A DNA stretch of 64,000 nt from Longimicrobiales bacterium (GTDB lineage Bacteria > Gemmatimonadota > Gemmatimonadetes > Longimicrobiales > Gaopeijiaceae), in the NCBI GenBank assembly GCA_965219445.1, contig CBDCNQ010000004.1, positions 320,001-384,000 of the forward strand, read 5' to 3'. The position numbers were made by a program, and so were the translations under genes. Shown one piece after another: positions 3,341 to 49,712 of the stretch. Each line of letters begins with the position of its first letter. The first letter of the stretch is position 1. The notes below the pieces were generated by a model, which saw nothing but the letters and a program-made list of their open reading frames with translations, was not told the DNA's origin and ran no database searches.

Positions 3341-6127
3341 CTAGCTCTCGGTCGTCCCAAACTTGATGTGCACGGTATCTGAATCCTCATCACGAAGCGC
3401 CTTCACCGCATCGTGAATCCCCTGCGTCAATTCGCGCTCTTCACGGAGCGCGTTGATGAGCCCCTCGGCTTCTCTCGCCTCGAAGCTCAGCTTCCCGGCG
3501 GTCGAGATCACATGATCGACCACCGTCCTCTGACTGGTCAGGGACTCGAGGCCGGACCGGATCTCCCTGAGTAAGGCATCCGCCCGTGCAAGACGCACCT
3601 CCGCCTGTTCAATCTGCTGCTGCCGCCCGTCGATATCGTCGAGCGCCTCTCTCATGGCATCCGCCTTGGCCTGCACTGACTCCAGCATCCGGGCGGCACC
3701 CTGTACTTCGTCACGCGCCGCGGAGATGGCCCTCACATCCTCCAGCGTTCGCTCTGACGCAGCAAACAGTTTTTCCACATCGTTGCGGACCTGCCCGACG
3801 CCCTCTTGTCTGGCGAGCAGGGTCTCAATCGACTGTTGGAGCTCCAGCTCCACCCCATCGAGCCGCGCGAGCTTCTCCTCGAACTGGGTGATTCGCTTTT
3901 CGGCGAAGCGTAGGCTGCCGGCCCTGGCCTCCAGCACGTCCGCCCGCTGCCCAATCTTCTCGGACTGCTCCTCGGCGATGACGAGGCTCTCATTCACCCC
4001 CCGGATCTTATCCTCCAAGGATTGGACCATCTCGGCCGCTTCCTTCCTCAGGGTCGACACAGCATCGAGCTGTCCCACCGCCTTCGACAGCGTGCGCTCG
4101 CCCTGGTGGATATCCTCCAACACACGGTCGGCCCGCTCGGACAGTGCGGTGACGGCCTCGGAGCGATCGACTGTCGAGTCGACTCTCTCACCCAACTCAG
4201 CCATTCGCCCCTCGGCCTGCTCAACCGCAGCCACGACCTCCTCGACCACCACGCGAACTTCATCCGCCTTATCGGCGTTCCGTGCAGCGGCCTTGAACCG
4301 ACGATCCGCATCCGTTAGGCCAGTGAGAAGGTTATTGGTGCGCTCGTCCAACTGCGTACCGATCTGACGGAGCTCCGACATCCGGACCTCGAGTTCTTCG
4401 AAAGATTCACGACGCTCGTCCAGATCCGACGCGGCTGTGACGACGCCATCCGCCATCTCCCGCATGTGATCGACGTTCGACCTCAAATCGTCCAGCTGGG
4501 CGACGTTCGCTCGTAGCTCCCCAACTCTTTCCTGGGTCTCGACCAGCCAGGCAGCGGTCTCGTCCTGCCCCATTTGCGTCCGCTCCATCTCGGCCTTCGT
4601 CGCTCGCATTCTCTCCAACGCGCCGGCGACCTCCTCTTGAGCACCACGAAGCGTTCGTAGGTCGTTCACGGCGTTCTCTACGTCGGACTGCCGCGCCTCG
4701 ATGCTGGAGAGAGACGAAGCCACGTCGACGGAGATTCGCCGGGCTTCCGACATCCCTTCCCGCATCCCTTCAACCAACTCCACCTGCTCACTGAGACGGC
4801 CCAACTCCCCAGACAGCGATGTCGTACGAGCAGACATATCGTCGACCCTGCGGTTGGCCTCGTTCAGCGCTTGGCCAGCTTCCTCGAGCTCACGGAAGCG
4901 GTTCTCGAGGTCGGTCACACTGGCCCGGAGAGCGATGACCCGCTGTCCGTCGGCCTCCAACGTGCTTTGCTCCAGCTCGAAGCGTTTGGTGCTACGCCGC
5001 ATCTGCTCCTGCAGCCCAGCTAGCGCCGCCCTCAGCGTCTTGCTATCCCGCTCGACTTGGGACTGCTCCGCCCGCAACTCGTCCGATCGCTCTCCGACCT
5101 TGGCATTCAGCTCGCGGAGGGCCTTCTTCACCTCATTGATCTGCGCTCGGGCGTCTTTCAGCTTCCCCTCGAGTTCCCAGTGGAGGTCGGTGAGCGCCCG
5201 GGCCTGGGCCTCCGTCCGGTCCATCGCCTCACGTTCCCGCTCTACCGCCGCGATCTTCCCGCTGATGTGGTCCGACAGGGTCTTCAGGGCGTTCAACTGC
5301 CGTTCCGTGCGGGCTCCGAGCTCCTCCGCCTTGTTGAGGTCCACCATTGCCTTGTCGACGCGCGCCACATTTGCGTTCGCCCTGTCCACACCGGCGTCGA
5401 CCGATTCCAACTTGGAACGCAAGTCCTTGTACCCTGACGAGATACTCTCTTGCGCCGCTCGAATACCCTCCTGGTCGTCGCTGAGCTGGGCGACTTCCTT
5501 ACCGTAGCTCAACGATTCTTCACGAGCCTGTTCGATCTGCGCTCGCACTCCGGCCAGCGCCCCTTTCGGCCCCGTAATCTCTTCGATCTCCTGCCTGATT
5601 TGCGCGATGGACTGGAGGCCTTCACCCAACTTCGCGACCCTTTCGTCGGCTTCGACCAACCGCCTCGACACCGATTCTACGGAGCTGGTCATCGCCTTCT
5701 GGTCGTCCTCTAGACCTCCTGCTCGCTCATCAATCGTCCCGATCCGGTCTTCGATCCGGGCAAGGTCGGTGGTTCGCGTCTCGAGTCGGTCGGCGGCGCT
5801 CGCACTCTGTTCGACAGTCTCCTTGAGATGTTCCTGGGACCTGCCGATTTCCTCTTCCCGCTGCTCCAGGAGGTCGAGTCGAGAAACAGATTCCGCCAGG
5901 GCGGCCGCGTGCGTCTGTAAGTCCGACGTCTGCGAATCCAGAGATTCGGCAGCGGCCTCGAGCGGATTTCCGAGATCCTCGATTTTCTTCGAGGCGGTCT
6001 CCGACCGCTTCAGAAGATCACGAAGGGCCCTTTTGTCACGATTTGCTTGGGCGAGCAGCTTCATGAGCTCCTCGGGGAGCTCTTCGAGTTCTCCGCTACC
6101 CAGTAGTGACTTGAGCCAAGACTTCAT
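3341..6127 (-). CDS. Long coiled-coil protein (no ATPase motifs)
   Basis: 928 aa, E/R/L/A/Q-rich heptad pattern throughout; GGAGAGG RBS; no Walker A/B. Confidence 0.8.
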   Translation of the reverse strand: MKSWLKSLLGSGELEELPEELMKLLAQANRDKRALRDLLKRSETASKKIEDLGNPLEAAAESLDSQTSDLQTHAAALAESVSRLDLLEQREEEIGRSQEHLKETVEQSASAADRLETRTTDLARIEDRIGTIDERAGGLEDDQKAMTSSVESVSRRLVEADERVAKLGEGLQSIAQIRQEIEEITGPKGALAGVRAQIEQAREESLSYGKEVAQLSDDQEGIRAAQESISSGYKDLRSKLESVDAGVDRANANVARVDKAMVDLNKAEELGARTERQLNALKTLSDHISGKIAAVEREREAMDRTEAQARALTDLHWELEGKLKDARAQINEVKKALRELNAKVGERSDELRAEQSQVERDSKTLRAALAGLQEQMRRSTKRFELEQSTLEADGQRVIALRASVTDLENRFRELEEAGQALNEANRRVDDMSARTTSLSGELGRLSEQVELVEGMREGMSEARRISVDVASSLSSIEARQSDVENAVNDLRTLRGAQEEVAGALERMRATKAEMERTQMGQDETAAWLVETQERVGELRANVAQLDDLRSNVDHMREMADGVVTAASDLDERRESFEELEVRMSELRQIGTQLDERTNNLLTGLTDADRRFKAAARNADKADEVRVVVEEVVAAVEQAEGRMAELGERVDSTVDRSEAVTALSERADRVLEDIHQGERTLSKAVGQLDAVSTLRKEAAEMVQSLEDKIRGVNESLVIAEEQSEKIGQRADVLEARAGSLRFAEKRITQFEEKLARLDGVELELQQSIETLLARQEGVGQVRNDVEKLFAASERTLEDVRAISAARDEVQGAARMLESVQAKADAMREALDDIDGRQQQIEQAEVRLARADALLREIRSGLESLTSQRTVVDHVISTAGKLSFEAREAEGLINALREERELTQGIHDAVKALRDEDSDTVHIKFGTTES

Positions 6128-6286: not shown

Positions 6287-6793
6287 TCATCGGATCAGCC
6301 GTCGCACCGGGACACTGCCTCGGGTCGTCATCTCGATCGGGTGGTCGCCCAATGGCGTGTCCACCGTGAGTTTCGTCTCAAGTGTATAGCCGATCGTACC
6401 CCGCTCCAACAGAGCACGTGCCCCCGCGCCAACTCCCCCCCAACCGAAAGAGAGTGGGAGTTCGATGGGAGTGACCGCCTGTGAGCCGAACCTGGTGGAG
6501 CCATCGAGGAATGCCTCGCCGAAACGAGTGCCCTCGAAGTCGATGGCCATGTCGATCTGACCCGTACGGAGATCATAGGAATTGGGGTTGTCCACGTCGA
6601 CCAGGAGCGTGAGTGATCCACCCGTGAGGCCGAGTCCGTCGATTTGGACCGAAGTGAGGTCGAAGTCGGGCGACTCGAAGCCGCCTTGCTGGAACATCGC
6701 ACACCCACTTGGCACGAGCGCCCAAATCAGGGCAACACAACGAGAGATGGAGATTTTCCCCGCGAAATGGCCGGCATGAACACGTTTTCTCGT
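6287..6793 (-). pseudogene. LEA_2/WHy-domain lipoprotein with its start removed at the IS256 boundary
   Basis: 'VDVDNPNSYDL' LEA_2 motif; frame stays open through a signal peptide (RKRVHAGHFAGKISISRCVALIWALVPSG-C) up to the IS end at 6794 with no start codon ahead of it. Confidence 0.7.
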
Positions 6794-6960
6794 GAGCTAG
6801 GATCAAAGGCATCATAGGGGCATGGCGACCGCTACCGGTACCGATCAGCAGCTAAGCAGCCCGAAGACGAAGAGGCGTTCTCCTCCGGGAGCGGGTGCGC
6901 GTTCATCATTATTCGCGCAAGCAAGCAACCCAACCCGTCCTACCCAAGAGGAGGATGCCC

Positions 6961-8015
6961 ATGGAGAGGTATATCGGACTCGACGCACACGCGTCGAGCT
7001 GCACGCTGGGGATTGTAGGCCCCAGCGGCAAGCGCTTGGGCTCGCAGGTGGTGGAGACGAACGCGCGGGCGCTGATCGAGGTGCTGCGAGGGATTCCGAG
7101 GAACCGGCACTTATGCCTGGAAGAAGGGACGCTGTCGGGGTGGCTGTACGAGGTGCTGAAGCCGCACGTGGAGGAGCTGACGGTGGCGGGGGTCGGCAAG
7201 AGCCGGGGCCCGAAGACCGACAAGCTGGACGCGTTTGCCCTGGCGGAGAAGCTGCGGATCGGATCACTGGAGACGACGGTCTACAAGAACCGGGGCCAGT
7301 TCAGGCGGCTGGGGGAACGGGCGAAGAGCTACGACTTCTTGGTCGGCGACACGGTGCGGGTGAAGAACCGGCTCAAGAGCGTGCTGCGCTCGAGAGGAGT
7401 GGCCTACGGCGCGGGGCGCTCGGTCTACTTAAAGCGCGACCGGGAGGAGTGGTTGGCCAAGCTGCCGGAAGCGAGCAGGACGACGGCCGGGTTGCTGTAC
7501 GAGGAGCACGACGCACTCGTGGCATTGAGGGCGAAGGCCGAGAAGGCGTTGCTGGCGGAAGCACGCAAGCATCGAGAGTGGCATGTGCTGAAGACGTGCC
7601 CGGGTCTGGGTCCGATCCGGACGGCGGAGCTCCTGCCGGTGGTGGTGACGCCGTACCGGTTCCAGAGCCGGAGCAGGTTCTGGGCGTACTGCGGACTGGG
7701 CGTGGTGATGCGGAGCTCGTCGGACTGGGTGCGGGGTCCGGGTGGGCGGTGGGTAAGGGAACCGGTACAGCAGACGCGGGGGCTGAATCGGAACTTCAAC
7801 CACACGCTGAAGCGTGTGTTCAAGGGCGCAGCGACGACGGTGATCGGTCGGGCCGAGGACGAGCCCTTGTACCGCCACTACGAGCGACTCCTGGAGGGGG
7901 GCACGAAGCCGAATCTGGCGAAGCTGACGATCGCGCGTCAGCTCGCCTCGATCGTGCTAGCGGTGTGGCGCACGGGCGAAGCGTACGACCCAAGAGACTG
8001 GAAGCGACGGAGTAA
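6961..8015 (+). CDS. IS110 DEDD transposase/recombinase (1-nt deletion near 7990 relative to copy 2)
   Basis: YIGLDAH, LEEG, KTDKLDA (DEDD), PGLGP, YCGLG..RSSS serine motif; GAGGAGG RBS. Confidence 0.93.
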
Positions 8016-8092
8016 ACCGGCCTGGGATCGGCGAGCGTGGGGTCGAAAGCGGTCACAACATGGGGTCCGACGAAACGGAAGCGAACCGGTTA

Positions 8093-8228
8093 CAGGGGAC
8101 AGCATCCATACACACCGTGGGCCGGGGCAGAGAGCCCAAGCCCCCACTCAAAGGCTATGCACCCCTGGAAGAGCCGAACGAAGCGATGGGCCACAGAGTC
8201 CCAGATAGAAGGATGGTTCCCGCTCCAG
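8093..8228 (+). ncRNA. Putative bridge/seek RNA core (target-binding and donor-binding loops)
   Basis: Stem CAGGGG..GCAT/ATGC.CCCCTG encloses loop strands TACACACC (8109-8116) and TCAAAGG (8148-8154) matching the insertion target; second stem-loop carries ATAGAAGG (8205-8212) matching the element end; transcript ends unknown. Confidence 0.8.
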
Positions 8229-8382
8229 AGCGGAGAACGCGACGGCTGTGAACGTCTTCCGGACTGCGATGCGGACCCTGCGAGCGCACCCCTCCCCACC
8301 CTGAGTCGTCGACCGGGCAATCCAAACCATGCGGACGCCGACGGTCAAAAAATGAGCCGACGGCGCGTGGGGAAGGTGCGTC

Positions 8383-8405
8383 TTGACCGCCAGCCCCATA
8401 GAAGG
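8383..8405 (+). promoter_or_regulatory. -35 half of a circle-junction promoter
   Basis: TTGACC at 8383-8388; joining the ends places CATCAT (6810-6815) exactly 17 bp downstream. Confidence 0.7.
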
Positions 8406-8501
8406 GTGTGTAAAAAAAGAGGCGACGTACCTTTCCGCTAGGTAGTAAGAAGTTAACCAGCGAATCCCGGGTGAGCGCCCGGGGGAAAGGAACGATGCCT
8501 C

Positions 8502-9746
8502 GTGAGGAAGAATATGGTGGGACCCGAGAGTGAGTCCAGCACGCCGACGTGGGAGTGCTTGGAAGCGCTGGTTCGTGAGAAGGCCCAGGAGATGGTCCAG
8601 CGGATTCTGGAGGAGGAAGTGACGGAGTTGCTCGGCCGGGAGAAGTCGGAGCGGAAGACGGTCGTAGACCCGGCGCCAGGCTACCGCAACGGCTACGGCA
8701 AGGCTCGGCGGCTGGCGATGAGCTCGGGCACGATCATGCTCCGACGGCCCCGGGTTCGAGGCATTGAGGAGCGGTTCGAGAGTCGGGTGTTGCCGTTGTT
8801 CGCACGACGGACGAAGGAGGTGGGTGCTCTGCTTCCGGAGCTGTATCTGCACGGGCTGGCGGAGGGAGACTTCGAGCTGGCGATGCGGGGCCTGCTGGGC
8901 GAGGGGGCCCCGTTGTCGAAGTCTTCGATTTGGCGGCTGCGGGCGGGATGGACAAGGAAATTCGAGGAATGGTCGAAGCGCTCGCTGGCCGACCGTGAGG
9001 TCGTCTACGTCTGGGCGGACGGGATCTACGTGAAGGCGGGGCTCGAGCGGGACAAGGCAGCGCTGCTGGTGGTTCTCGGTGCGATGCGAGATGGTACGAA
9101 GGAGGTGTTGGCCCTGAGATCGGGCTACCGAGAGTCGGTCGAGTCCTGGTCCGAGGTGTTGCGGGATCTGAAGGCACGCGGCATCGAGGCGCCCCGGCTT
9201 TTGATGGCGGACGGCAACGCGGCGATCTGGGGCGCAGTACGGCAGGTATGGCCTGAGGCGGGCGAGCAACGGTGCTGGAACCACAAGATGAGGAACGTGC
9301 TGGACCGGCTGCCTCAGCGGGAGCAGAGCGAGGCGAAGGACCTTCTCAGGACCGTGGTCTACGCACCGAGGCGGTCCGAGGCGCTGAAGGCCCGTGAGGC
9401 GTTCGCCAGGCGCTACAGACCGTGGTATCCGAAGGCGGTGGATGTACTCGAGGACGACTGGGAGCGGATGGTGGCGTTCTACGACTTCCCCGAGGACCAC
9501 TGGAAGCATCTACGCACGACGAACGTGGTCGAGAGCCCCTTTGCCGCAGTACGGCTCAGGACAACGGCGGCGAAGCGCTTCAAGCGGGTCGAGAGCGCTA
9601 CGGCGCTGATCTGGAAGCTGCTCTTGGTGGCGGAGAAGCGCTTCAGAAGGCTCGACGCTCCTCACCTCCTCAAGGACGTATTTGAAGGAAGAAAGTTCGA
9701 AGACGGAAAGCCCGTCTCAACCCAACAGCGGAAAAACGCCGCCTGA
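8502..9746 (+). CDS. IS256-family (Mutator) DDE transposase
   Basis: YRNGY, LYLHGL, WADG, MADG, QRCWNH, LRTTNVVES motifs; 414 aa. Confidence 0.95.
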   Translation: MRKNMVGPESESSTPTWECLEALVREKAQEMVQRILEEEVTELLGREKSERKTVVDPAPGYRNGYGKARRLAMSSGTIMLRRPRVRGIEERFESRVLPLFARRTKEVGALLPELYLHGLAEGDFELAMRGLLGEGAPLSKSSIWRLRAGWTRKFEEWSKRSLADREVVYVWADGIYVKAGLERDKAALLVVLGAMRDGTKEVLALRSGYRESVESWSEVLRDLKARGIEAPRLLMADGNAAIWGAVRQVWPEAGEQRCWNHKMRNVLDRLPQREQSEAKDLLRTVVYAPRRSEALKAREAFARRYRPWYPKAVDVLEDDWERMVAFYDFPEDHWKHLRTTNVVESPFAAVRLRTTAAKRFKRVESATALIWKLLLVAEKRFRRLDAPHLLKDVFEGRKFEDGKPVSTQQRKNAA

Positions 9747-9775
9747 AACATTTACACACCTATTGACCCAACCTC

Positions 9776-46708: not shown

Positions 46709-46981
46709 GAGGCATCGTTCCTTTCCCCCGGGCGCTCACCCGGGATTCGCTGGTTAACTTCTTACTACCTAGCGGAAAGGTACGTCGCCTCTTTTTTTAC
46801 ACACCCTTCTATGGGGCTGGCGGTCAAGACGCACCTTCCCCACGCGCCGTCGGCTCATTTTTTGACCGTCGGCGTCCGCATGGTTTGGATTGCCCGGTCG
46901 ACGACTCAGGGTGGGGAGGGGTGCGCTCGCAGGGTCCGCATCGCAGTCCGGAAGACGTTCACAGCCGTCGCGTTCTCCGCT

Positions 46982-47116
46982 CTGGAGCGGGAACCATCCT
47001 TCTATCTGGGACTCTGTGGCCCATCGCTTCGTTCGGCTCTCCAGGGGTGCATAGCCTTTGAGTGGGGGCTTGGGCTCTCTGCCCCGGCCCACGGTGTGTA
47101 TGGATGCTGTCCCCTG
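46982..47116 (-). ncRNA. Putative bridge/seek RNA core, copy 2
   Basis: Same guides (47093-47100, 47055-47061) and stems as 8093-8228. Confidence 0.8.
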
Positions 47117-47193
47117 TAACCGGTTCGCTTCCGTTTCGTCGGACCCCATGTTGTGACCGCTTTCGACCCCACGCTCGCCGATCCCAGGCCGGT

Positions 47194-48249
47194 TTACTCC
47201 GTCGCTTCCAGTCTCTTGGGGTCGTACGCTTCGCCCGTGCGCCACACCGCTAGCACGATCGAGGCGAGCTGACGCGCGATCGTCAGCTTCGCCAGATTCG
47301 GCTTCGTGCCCCCCTCCAGGAGTCGCTCGTAGTGGCGGTACAAGGGTTCGTTTTCGGCCCGACCGATCACCGTCGTCGCCGCGCCCTTGAACACACGCTT
47401 CAGCGTGTGGTTGAAGTTCCGATTCAGCCCCCGCGTCTGCTGTACCGGTTCCCTTACCCACCGCCCACCCGGACCCCGCACCCAGTCCGACGAGCTCCGC
47501 ATCACGACGCCCAGTCCGCAGTACGCCCAGAACCTGCTCCGGCTCTGGAACCGGTACGGCGTCACCACCACCGGCAGGAGCTCCGCCGTCCGGATCGGAC
47601 CCAGACCCGGGCACGTCTTCAGCACATGCCACTCTCGATGCTTGCGTGCTTCCGCCAGCAAGGCCTTCTCGGCCTTCGCCCTCAATGCCACGAGTGCGTC
47701 GTGCTCCTCGTACAGCAACCCGGCCGTCGTCCTGCTCGCTTCCGGCAGCTTGGCCAACCACTCCTCCCGGTCGCGCTTTAAGTAGACCGAGCGCCCCGCG
47801 CCGTAGGCCACTCCTCTCGAGCGCAGCACGCTCTTGAGCCGGTTCTTCACCCGCACCGTGTCGCCGACCAGGAAGTCGTAGCTCTTCGCCCGTTCCCCCA
47901 GCCGCCTGAACTGGCCCCGGTTCTTGTAGACCCTCGTCTCCAGTGATCCGATCCGCAGCTTCTCCGCCAGGGCAAACGCGTCCAGCTTGTCGGTCTTCGG
48001 GCCCCGGCTCTTGCCGACCCCCGCCACCGTTAGCTCCTCCACGTGCGGCTCCAGCACCTCGTACAGCCACCCCGACAGCGTCCCTTCTTCCAGGCACAAG
48101 TGCCGGTTCCTCGGAATCCCTCGCAGCACCTCGATCAGCGCCCGCGCGTTCGTCTCCACCACCTGCGAGCCCAAGCGCTTGCCGCTGGGGCCTACAATCC
48201 CCAGCGTGCAGCTCGACGCGTGTGCGTCGAGTCCGATATATCTCTCCAT
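47194..48249 (-). CDS. IS110 DEDD transposase/recombinase (intact, 351 aa)
   Basis: DEDD and Ser motifs; GAGGAG RBS before ATG 48249. Confidence 0.93.
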   Translation of the reverse strand: MERYIGLDAHASSCTLGIVGPSGKRLGSQVVETNARALIEVLRGIPRNRHLCLEEGTLSGWLYEVLEPHVEELTVAGVGKSRGPKTDKLDAFALAEKLRIGSLETRVYKNRGQFRRLGERAKSYDFLVGDTVRVKNRLKSVLRSRGVAYGAGRSVYLKRDREEWLAKLPEASRTTAGLLYEEHDALVALRAKAEKALLAEARKHREWHVLKTCPGLGPIRTAELLPVVVTPYRFQSRSRFWAYCGLGVVMRSSSDWVRGPGGRWVREPVQQTRGLNRNFNHTLKRVFKGAATTVIGRAENEPLYRHYERLLEGGTKPNLAKLTIARQLASIVLAVWRTGEAYDPKRLEATE

Positions 48250-49712
48250 CGGCGTTCTCCTCTTGGATAGGTGGGTTGCTTCCTTGCGCGAACAATGATG
48301 AACGCGCACCCGCTCCCGGAGGAGAACGCCTCTTCGTCTTCGGGCTGCTTCGCTGCTGATCGGTACCGGTAGCCGTCGCCATGCCCCTATGATGCCTTTG
48401 ATCCTAGCTCTCGTACTTCGGCCAGGACGTCAGTGTCGGTGCTCCCCACACGGCGGATAACCCCATCTTGGATGACCCTGAGAAGCTTGGCCTGAGTGGG
48501 CATCGGCATCTGGGTGAGCTCATCCAGGAAAAGGGTCCCGCCGCTGGCTATCTCCATCAGACCCTTCTTGTCGCTCACCGCGCCCGTGAATGAGCCAGCG
48601 ACGTGTCCGAACATCTCCGACTCCACCAGATTGTCGGGGACGGCGGCACAGTTGATCGACACCATCGACCGACTGCTTCTCCGGCTGTTCTGGTGGATGA
48701 ATTGCGCGATCAACTCTTTGCCCGTGCCGCTCTCGCCGCTGAGGAACACAGTGGCATTCGTACGTGCGACGCTCCTGGCCATGTCGACAACCCGCCCAAG
48801 AGCAGCCGATTGACCAAGAATAGGGATCTCCGCGCCGTATCCCAATCCGGTCTCGTGGCTCTGGTACTGCTTGTCGCTCTCTCTCGACACGACGATCGCG
48901 TGCGCGGCCCGCCCCATGAGAATGTGGAGATGGGTAGCCGAAAAGGGCTTCGGGATATAGTCCCAAGCCCCCAGACGAAGGGCCTCGAGGCTGGTCTCCA
49001 CCGACGGCTTCCCGGTCATCATGACGACCAAGCACTCTTCGTCCTTCTCCACCGCAGCGTTCAGGAGATCCATTCCCGAGACGTCTCGCATGTAGAGGTC
49101 GAGCAGAACGATCTCAAAATGACGACGACGAATGAAGTCGAGAGCCTCCTCTCCGCCCGCCGTTACTGGAAACCCTTCGGCACGAAGCAAGGACGCACAA
49201 CTCTCGCGGAGGCTGTGGTCGTCGTCGACCACGAGTACGGGCATGGTCGATTTTACGTCGGTCTCGACGATCGTCGGGGGCCTCTCGCTGCCAGGCGTCC
49301 CTGTGGCTTCGGACGTCTTCAAGCTCGCCGGTCCCTCAGGTAGATGCCGCGGTTACAGTTGCGGAGACACGGATTCATACTCGATCCTCATTTGGGGCCT
49401 CGCCATTCAGGGGCAGTAAACATACGTTGCTGGAGGTACGCCGCAACGCACCTGTGGACTTCATGCAACGGTTCGTGTGTGGAGGTGCCATGAATCAAGC
49501 GGGGGGTAGGAGCCGAATCCCCAGTGTTTGCAAGTGTTTGCAAGAGTTTCGGTGAGTTCTTATTCTCCCGGAACATGTCGGTATCGGTCGTGCTGTGCTT
49601 CGGCTCTCGAGGGCTCACACGGCCATTCTGGGACAATCGATTCGTTGAGTAAATATGAACAAATGTTTGAGTGGAAGTAAACAAAAAGACGTGTTGGGAC
49701 GATGAGGACACC

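Follow-up and report, generated by a model that had tools for sequence, protein, structure and literature searches.

This locus raises the question of why a bridge-type RNA should carry, within a single donor-binding loop, a perfect guide for one end of its element and an imperfect guide for the other. The window, i.e. the whole stretch of 64,000 nucleotides that was analysed, comes from a Longimicrobiales bacterium, and its features are given on the forward strand unless stated otherwise. The original prediction placed here the donor-binding loop of an IS1111-type element in which one guide is perfect and the other imperfect, a pattern that comparison with relatives extends to the whole family. 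As a whole, the observation was confirmed in part and its interpretation supported in part: the loop and the asymmetry of the guides stood, while the frame of the core, two stems and a "mismatched G" did not. Taken alone, the observation in a single window is an ordinary bridge-RNA feature. What appears new here is that the left-guide mismatch A8182/A6811 is kept in 60/66 relatives, at the -11 position of a predicted promoter.

The comparison was built on 227 loci, window included, collected from genome and metagenome contigs, viral contigs (one locus) and genome searches. The RNA could be parsed in 169/227, of which 106 were left after collapsing near-identical proteins; the poorly parsed relatives L066, L211 and L031 were omitted. 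Removal of L016 (a duplicate) and L223 (a wrong left-end call) then gave 104 relatives, with the right end known in 87 and the left end in 66. The donor guide played no part in the calling of left ends, which relied on the right target guide and the subterminal repeat; for L044 and L217 the left end was placed by hand from the repeat. The tree has 62 leaves, four frameshifted rows being omitted, and the structure alignment holds 75 of 101 available rows.

The element and its insertion site

The insertion sequence runs from 6809 to 8404, with ends set by the family junction comparison. Its DEDD transposase/recombinase (6961-8015) is matched by PF01548 (39 bits, cut-off 29) and PF02371 (31.9 bits, cut-off 21.3), and thus presents the DEDD RuvC-like domain and the C-terminal Tnp domain with a catalytic serine that characterise IS110 enzymes. 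In the family alignment D8, E54/E55, D87 and D90 are invariant and S253 is kept in at least 90%. Since NF033542 gave 112 bits, under its cut-off of 140, the protein is, by profile score, a divergent IS110-family member. The IS1111 motif GL-P----S(t)G is not found: the family consensus GLGIVMRSSSD has the right serine spacing, no proline and no glycine after the serine. The nearest plasmid proteins are 21-28% identical to the transposase, the nearest GTDB relatives are Longimicrobiales MAGs, and a PDB search returned no significant relative. Three similar rows in Durrant's supplementary table bear no ISfinder name.

The genome carries 22 near-full copies of the element, 98-100% identical, one of them elsewhere in the window (46806-48395, minus strand). 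The transposase is 351 aa long in 17/22 copies. The window copy lacks one base at 7988, extending the frame to 8208; this base is missing in 5/22 copies, where it extends or alters the transposase C-terminus, and an extra A at 8169 occurs in 8/22 genomic copies, the second copy in the window being without it. Both changes are absent from the contigs of three public runs and are probably assembly errors. The non-coding stretches measure 152 nt upstream and 389 nt downstream of the transposase, and the RNA (8093-8233) lies in the latter, so that the long downstream non-coding region with a guide RNA 3' of the transposase, as in IS1111 elements, is present. Coverage in the single RNA run was confined to 7044-7329.

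The host of the insertion is an IS256-family element, whose left terminal repeat is interrupted: 19/22 copies run straight into the inner part of this repeat and 21/22 share the same 15-bp outer part (6794-6808) as their left boundary. The remainder of the IS256-family element (8405-9775) comprises a target arm (8405-8412), a transposase (8502-9746; NF033543 295 bits, cut-off 150) and a right repeat ending at 9775, to which the left repeat is identical at 20/27 positions. The target arm for the right target guide, 6802-6806, falls within the left repeat. Contigs of public run X1 showed the repeat uninterrupted, with loose ends at 8402.

Several side observations concern this target. It is saturated in the genome, with 21 sites following the right end of the element and no exact empty left-repeat site found in the whole genome; each of the four unfilled left repeats differs at one base of the arm that the right target guide reads, and three of these repeats could be imprecise excision scars. 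Right repeats are hit in 0/29 cases. A target duplication of 8-9 bp is kept in seven of 16 composite IS256 copies, and several others, including the window copy, have flanks swapped between copies, pointing to recombination between them. One copy (G000:C2 near 336710) occupies a non-IS256 site, where the target register, by eye, is apparently one base off the usual. Two relatives at 69% identity (L095, L093) carry guides for the same IS256-type left repeat, and L095 sits in it; L009 (95% identity) has altered target guides and a left flank that resembles the IS256 right repeat. Upstream of the insertion lie, on the minus strand, a 928-aa protein, coiled-coil-like by eye (3341-6127), and a LEA_2-domain protein (6287-6715), and no connection of these two with the donor loop was seen. 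The genome also holds a second, unrelated IS1111-type family (G000:C2 near 274714, minus strand, and four more copies), with a 348-aa transposase, a long right end, clear subterminal repeats, a TG core and its own conserved target.

Fold of the RNA and frame of its guides

In the 75-sequence alignment, 93.3% of the cells of the two-loop RNA model are paired and 20/27 pairs show two-sided changes, the pairing being well above every slid control; covariation thus supports the two-loop structure. The segment holding both target guides (8093-8167) has helices that are 94-100% paired with two-sided changes, 8162-8167 pairing with 8093-8098 (94.4%). The donor-binding loop (8171-8219) is modelled as a simple internal loop between a closing stem, 8171-8175/8215-8219 (94.4% paired), and an inner stem, 8188-8191/8198-8201 (99.3%). 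A 3' hairpin follows at 8220-8233 (80.7% paired, two-sided changes in 4/4 pairs). Two of the three stems proposed originally were wrong: the outer stem CTGGA/TCCAG is paired in only 47.5% of the 75-sequence alignment and the inner stem TGGG/CCCA in 68.3%, a register that the alignment does not support. Folding of 8165-8228 alone was no better than shuffles (z -0.78), a search of Rfam gave nothing near any gathering score, and support for the stems comes solely from covariation in the alignment. The four guide strands are equidistant from an AG..CC motif, each with seven guide bases, two more bases and then the stem.

The shared core is AG (6807-6808 and 8403-8404), i.e. CT in the IS621 orientation. 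The dinucleotide is equal at both junctions in 50/55 relatives. A GG/CC core was rejected, the next base being equal in only 34/56, and the frame assumed in the original prediction was accordingly one base off. Immediately beyond the right-end core, the 87 relatives have G (59), C (11), A (10) or T (7); this variability assigns 8405 to the target DNA and makes G8212 a handshake position. Core types among the 87 relatives are AG (62), AC (16), AA (5) and other (4), with the guides changing along. As expected for IS110 elements, the core has two nucleotides and, in the IS621 orientation, a nearly invariant T at the second, with no duplication of the target outside the core; in IS621 itself T is almost invariant and C less so (PMC11208158).

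The left target guide (8109-8116) is complementary to 8405-8412 at 8/8 positions; G8117 then faces the first core base as a mismatch and T8118 faces the second. The right target guide (8147-8153) matches 6802-6808 at 6/7 and is followed by the dinucleotide 8154-8155, identical to 6809-6810. This dinucleotide equals the first left-end base in 52/66 relatives and the second in 49/66, and the dinucleotide that follows the right guide in each loop behaves like a handshake guide. Since 8109-8116 complements the plus strand and 8147-8153 the minus strand, of the two target matches the top-strand one is the more 5', the order found in IS1111 elements. The left target guide reaches at least 5.5/7 in 64/87 relatives. 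Three pairing registers with respect to the core occur (18, 19 and 25 of 87), the third without core pairing. The mismatched G had been assigned to the second core position and regarded as a feature of both left guides; G8117 and G8185 face the first core base instead and lack conservation, the G8185 column varies more than any other in its segment (21 changes on the 62-leaf tree), and its target-guide counterpart pairs in 30/37 relatives with registers 15 or 16.

The right donor guide (8205-8211) is followed by the handshake dinucleotide 8212-8213 and matches 8398-8404 at 7/7, a stretch that family comparison divides into the right donor arm (8398-8402) and the core AG (8403-8404). The identity first noted between 8205-8212 and 8398-8405 was right in its letters and wrong in its frame, since it joins seven guide bases to a handshake base. 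This 7-nt match is unique within 8016-8382, where 0.022 would be expected by chance. The guide is perfect in 81/87 relatives, and on the tree guide and DNA changes coincide, the joint changes equalling the larger single count at all seven positions. The comparison shows the right guide as an exact, co-evolving copy of the right end. As expected of an IS110 donor loop, both arms of the joined ends are matched, the left one partially and with covariation. The recombinase, the target and donor loops and the 2-nt core together place the element in the IS110 family by sequence.

The left donor guide and the base that it faces

The left donor guide (8178-8184) matches the left donor arm (6809-6815), the 7-bp left extension, at 5/7, and the two bases after it are not paired with the core. 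The two mismatches set C8179 opposite A6814 and A8182 opposite A6811; in the longer frame used originally, 8177-8184 matches the reverse complement of 6809-6816 at 5/8, exactly as reported. A 5/7 match to the left end is unremarkable by itself, as seven places in 8016-8382 reach it, and therefore the assignment of the guide rests on its position in the loop and on family covariation. Other registers were worse by eye, and a reading of the right end through the common GAAG was rejected by eye, this strand not tracking the shift of the core to AC in the Acidobacteria-type clade.

Among the 66 relatives with a known left end, the guide scores 7/7 in none, 6/7 in eight, 5/7 in 52, 4/7 in four and 3/7 in two, and both core positions are paired in 5/66. 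Guides match their own left ends at 5.0 positions, against a mean of 4.47 and a maximum of 4.67 in 5000 shuffles that ignore kinship. The mutual information between guide and left end peaks on the diagonal (position 3: 0.60), and at 45 departures of the left end from the consensus the guide is Watson-Crick paired in 25 and wobble-paired in eight (33/45, kinship ignored). Tree-independent contrasts, at 4-5 pairs per position, were too few to reach significance (p at least 0.25). In L217, which is 31% identical, the guide is 6/7, with position 5 alone wrong. Comparison thus shows a left guide that tracks the left end in part only.

The two mismatches differ in how they are kept. At position 2 the guide is loose, being mismatched in 40/66 with 14 changes on the tree. 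At position 5 the DNA base is invariant and the guide has A in 60 relatives, T in five and G in one, with three changes on the tree, compared with 21 at the free position after the guide. Two of these three changes go to the matching base, and five rows from two lineages are matched here, which means that a mismatch is not required. In the target guide this position is paired in 17/18 relatives of the same register.

The DNA base facing position 5 lies in a predicted promoter. Joining of the ends sets TTGACC (8383-8388), the predicted -35 box, 17 nt before 6810-6815, the predicted -10 box, in which A6811 is -11 and T6815 is -7; the -35 box is found in 81/86 relatives, a count that is not independent since most right ends were located with a TTGA anchor. 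Junction promoters of this layout have been described for IS1111 elements (PMC11187229). Every left end (66/66) keeps an A at -11 and a T at -7, and the comparison shows that the left end doubles as the predicted -10 box, which would fix these two bases. In promoter terms, the conserved mismatch falls on the -11 A of the non-template strand and the second mismatch on -8. Positions -11 and -7 are the most conserved of a -10 box, and sigma-70 flips the -11 base to open the DNA. The circle junction itself was found in 0 copies in the genome and in none of the contigs of runs X1, X3, X6 and X20, contigs being prone to drop rare forms. In relative L153 the right end is followed by 10 nt resembling the left end and then by divergence, which is at most suggestive.

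Since its position-5 mismatch is kept opposite a predicted promoter base, the left guide, as judged from the comparison, is not simply decayed. The predicted junction promoter explains why the DNA base at -11 cannot change; it leaves unexplained why the guide has not changed to match. An unchanged guide calls for selection either for the mismatch or for A in the RNA.

Six distant alphaproteobacterial plasmid elements (21-28% identical, parsed semi-manually; L232, which was unparsable, L230 and L235 were left out) have left guides of 5-6/7, mismatched at position 5 in two of the elements and at other positions in the remaining four; the right guide is exact in all four elements where the script located it. 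In the second IS1111-type family of the genome the right guides are perfect and the best left-guide candidate is 5/7, with other positions mismatched. A perfect right and an imperfect left guide may therefore be widespread; the link to -11 is seen in the family of the window element only.

Possible reasons for the kept mismatch

Our working explanation, which we rate as evenly poised between right and wrong, is that this is the donor loop of an IS621-like bridge RNA, whose left guide is a real guide kept below full strength by selection. As in IS621, pairing would bring each loop strand onto one of the strands of the joined ends, and the exchange would occur at the 2-nt core. The mismatch would loosen the grip of RNA and protein on the arm that bears the promoter, so that RNA polymerase could still use the junction promoter and excision or donor-donor recombination would be kept low; donor specificity would rest on protein contacts together with the right guide, core and handshake bases. 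Natural donor-guide mismatches have been described for IS621 (G161 with dT12, right guide; PMC11208158) and ISPpu10 (G.G, right guide; bioRxiv 2026.03.19.712850), and the right donor guide of IS621 reads the left-end arm, the bearer of the -10 box (PMC11208158). Small guide changes in IS621 shift the balance of insertion and excision (PMC13626964), whereas its left-donor mismatches are reported to be generally poorly tolerated (PMC11208160), which counts against a selected mismatch.

Selection could, alternatively, act simply for A in the RNA. A8182 would then be kept for an RNA or protein contact, and its mismatch with the promoter base would be tolerated without being useful, a possibility that we consider unlikely. 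The guide A is as conserved as paired guide positions (three changes), and some loop bases of IS621 are released from the DNA duplex and pair inside the RNA instead (U159 with A131; PMC11208158). However, the target guide is free to vary at the corresponding position, where it pairs, and the fact that two of the three changes at position 5 yield the matching base is likewise at odds with a need for A.

The original prediction suggested that donor recognition may rely partly on the subterminal repeats; in the corresponding model, transposase binding to them would offset the weak left guide and carry much of donor recognition. The left repeat (6814-6827) is imperfect, with 12 identities in 14 columns and two single-base gaps, and its right counterpart, from family comparison, lies at 8388-8399. 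Across 54 relatives the own-pair score is 7.30, against a mean of 4.97 and a maximum of 5.65 in 1000 shuffles, and the top covarying pair (left-end position 11 with right-end position 10) is 91% identical. These data support joint selection on the repeats. The idea that they make up for a weak guide found no support, repeat strength and left-guide match being uncorrelated (rho -0.04, p 0.79, n=54, of low power as 43/54 share one guide score). The strongest repeat (L217), moreover, accompanies a 6/7 guide, the repeat of the window element is short and gapped, and the near-perfect tracking of the right end by the right guide indicates strong selection on RNA pairing. From the literature, an 82-nt target-only RNA supports ISEc11 transposition (PMC11187229), in line with recognition by the repeats, whereas circle formation and integration of CazIS110-1 require the full RNA (bioRxiv 2025.10.25.684509). 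We regard compensation by the repeats as distinctly improbable. Reliance on the repeats had been presented as proposed for IS1111-type elements; the compensation idea was not found in the available part of Siddiquee 2024, which says that end recognition may differ between groups and gives the end-binding domain as unknown. Relative to the 11-13 bp perfect or near-perfect IS1111 repeats with 7-bp left and 3-bp right extensions, those of this family are present, covarying and gapped (family mean local score 7.3). The element is IS1111-type by layout; the missing motif and the gapped repeats make strict IS1111 membership uncertain.

That the left strand is a relic or purely structural, unpaired with DNA, its 5/7 match being ancestral resemblance, fits the seven equally good places in the non-coding region, the lack of any 7/7 guide, the core pairing in just 5/66 and the non-significant independent contrasts, and is nevertheless very improbable given that the strand is spaced from the conserved AG..CC motif like the other three guides, changes in concert with the left end in separate clades (L044/L052, L208, L209, L219, L217) and, in distant plasmid elements with different left ends, matches 5-6/7 at the analogous place.

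A wider proposal would make the selected mismatch a general bridge-RNA rule, in which the guide that reads the left end is kept mismatched at the -11 adenine and the junction toggles between transcription and recombination, a switch coupling transposase expression to insertion. We put this forward as a speculation and consider it improbable.

Relation to known elements and significance

Features in common with IS621 are the pair of internal loops with four guide strands, the left arm of 7 nt, a CT core in which T is near-invariant, the 2-nt handshake that follows the right guides, the predicted junction promoter and natural non-canonical guide pairs. Unlike that of IS621, as described in the sources available, the RNA of the window element lies downstream of the transposase and target and donor are read in the opposite orientation; of its donor guides the left is imperfect, and this guide is unpaired with the core, whereas that of IS621 pairs over 8 nt including the core C. 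The two transposases are barely alignable (E 0.099). With ISEc11, ISPa11 and ISKpn4 (PMC11187229) the window element shares the downstream non-coding region, the 7-bp left extension, subterminal repeats, a predicted -35 box in the right end with a predicted -10 box in the left end, and a top-strand target match 5' of the bottom-strand match; it differs from them in its gapped repeats and in having GLG[VI]VMRSS in place of GL-P----S(t)G. A multi-loop is predicted to hold the donor guides of many IS1111 RNAs, in place of the simple internal loop modelled here. Donor pairing for seekRNA elements was not found in the accessible portion of PMC11187229. ISPpu10 (bioRxiv 2026.03.19.712850) likewise combines a natural donor-interface mismatch with a junction promoter whose -10 is in the left end, but its single G.G is on the right guide of one element, and family conservation or a tie to the promoter was not found in the part of that report available. 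The target recalls IS4321/IS5075, which insert into Tn21 repeats, and IS1383, which inserts into IS1384 repeats, these being described cases of IS110/IS1111-family insertion into terminal inverted repeats of another mobile element; here, in contrast, the target is the left repeat of an IS256-family element.

We found no report of a conserved left-donor-guide mismatch or of its link to a junction promoter in the literature searched, which left out most subscription literature; Extended Data Fig. 10c of PMC11208160, with the guides of three IS1111 elements, may show such mismatches. Siddiquee 2024 and bioRxiv 2025.10.25.684509, as far as these sources were available, treat the recognition of their own ends by IS1111-type elements as an open question. 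Because the right guide tracks the right end in 81/87 relatives, the RNA of this IS1111-type element appears to pair with the donor, and the family of the window element offers comparative evidence for such pairing. It also provides one named base pair, A8182/A6811, whose repair tests directly why natural guides stay imperfect. If the mismatch does restrain activity, its repair would be a simple lever for the engineering of IS1111-type bridge recombinases, which, from the literature available, have been little used so far.
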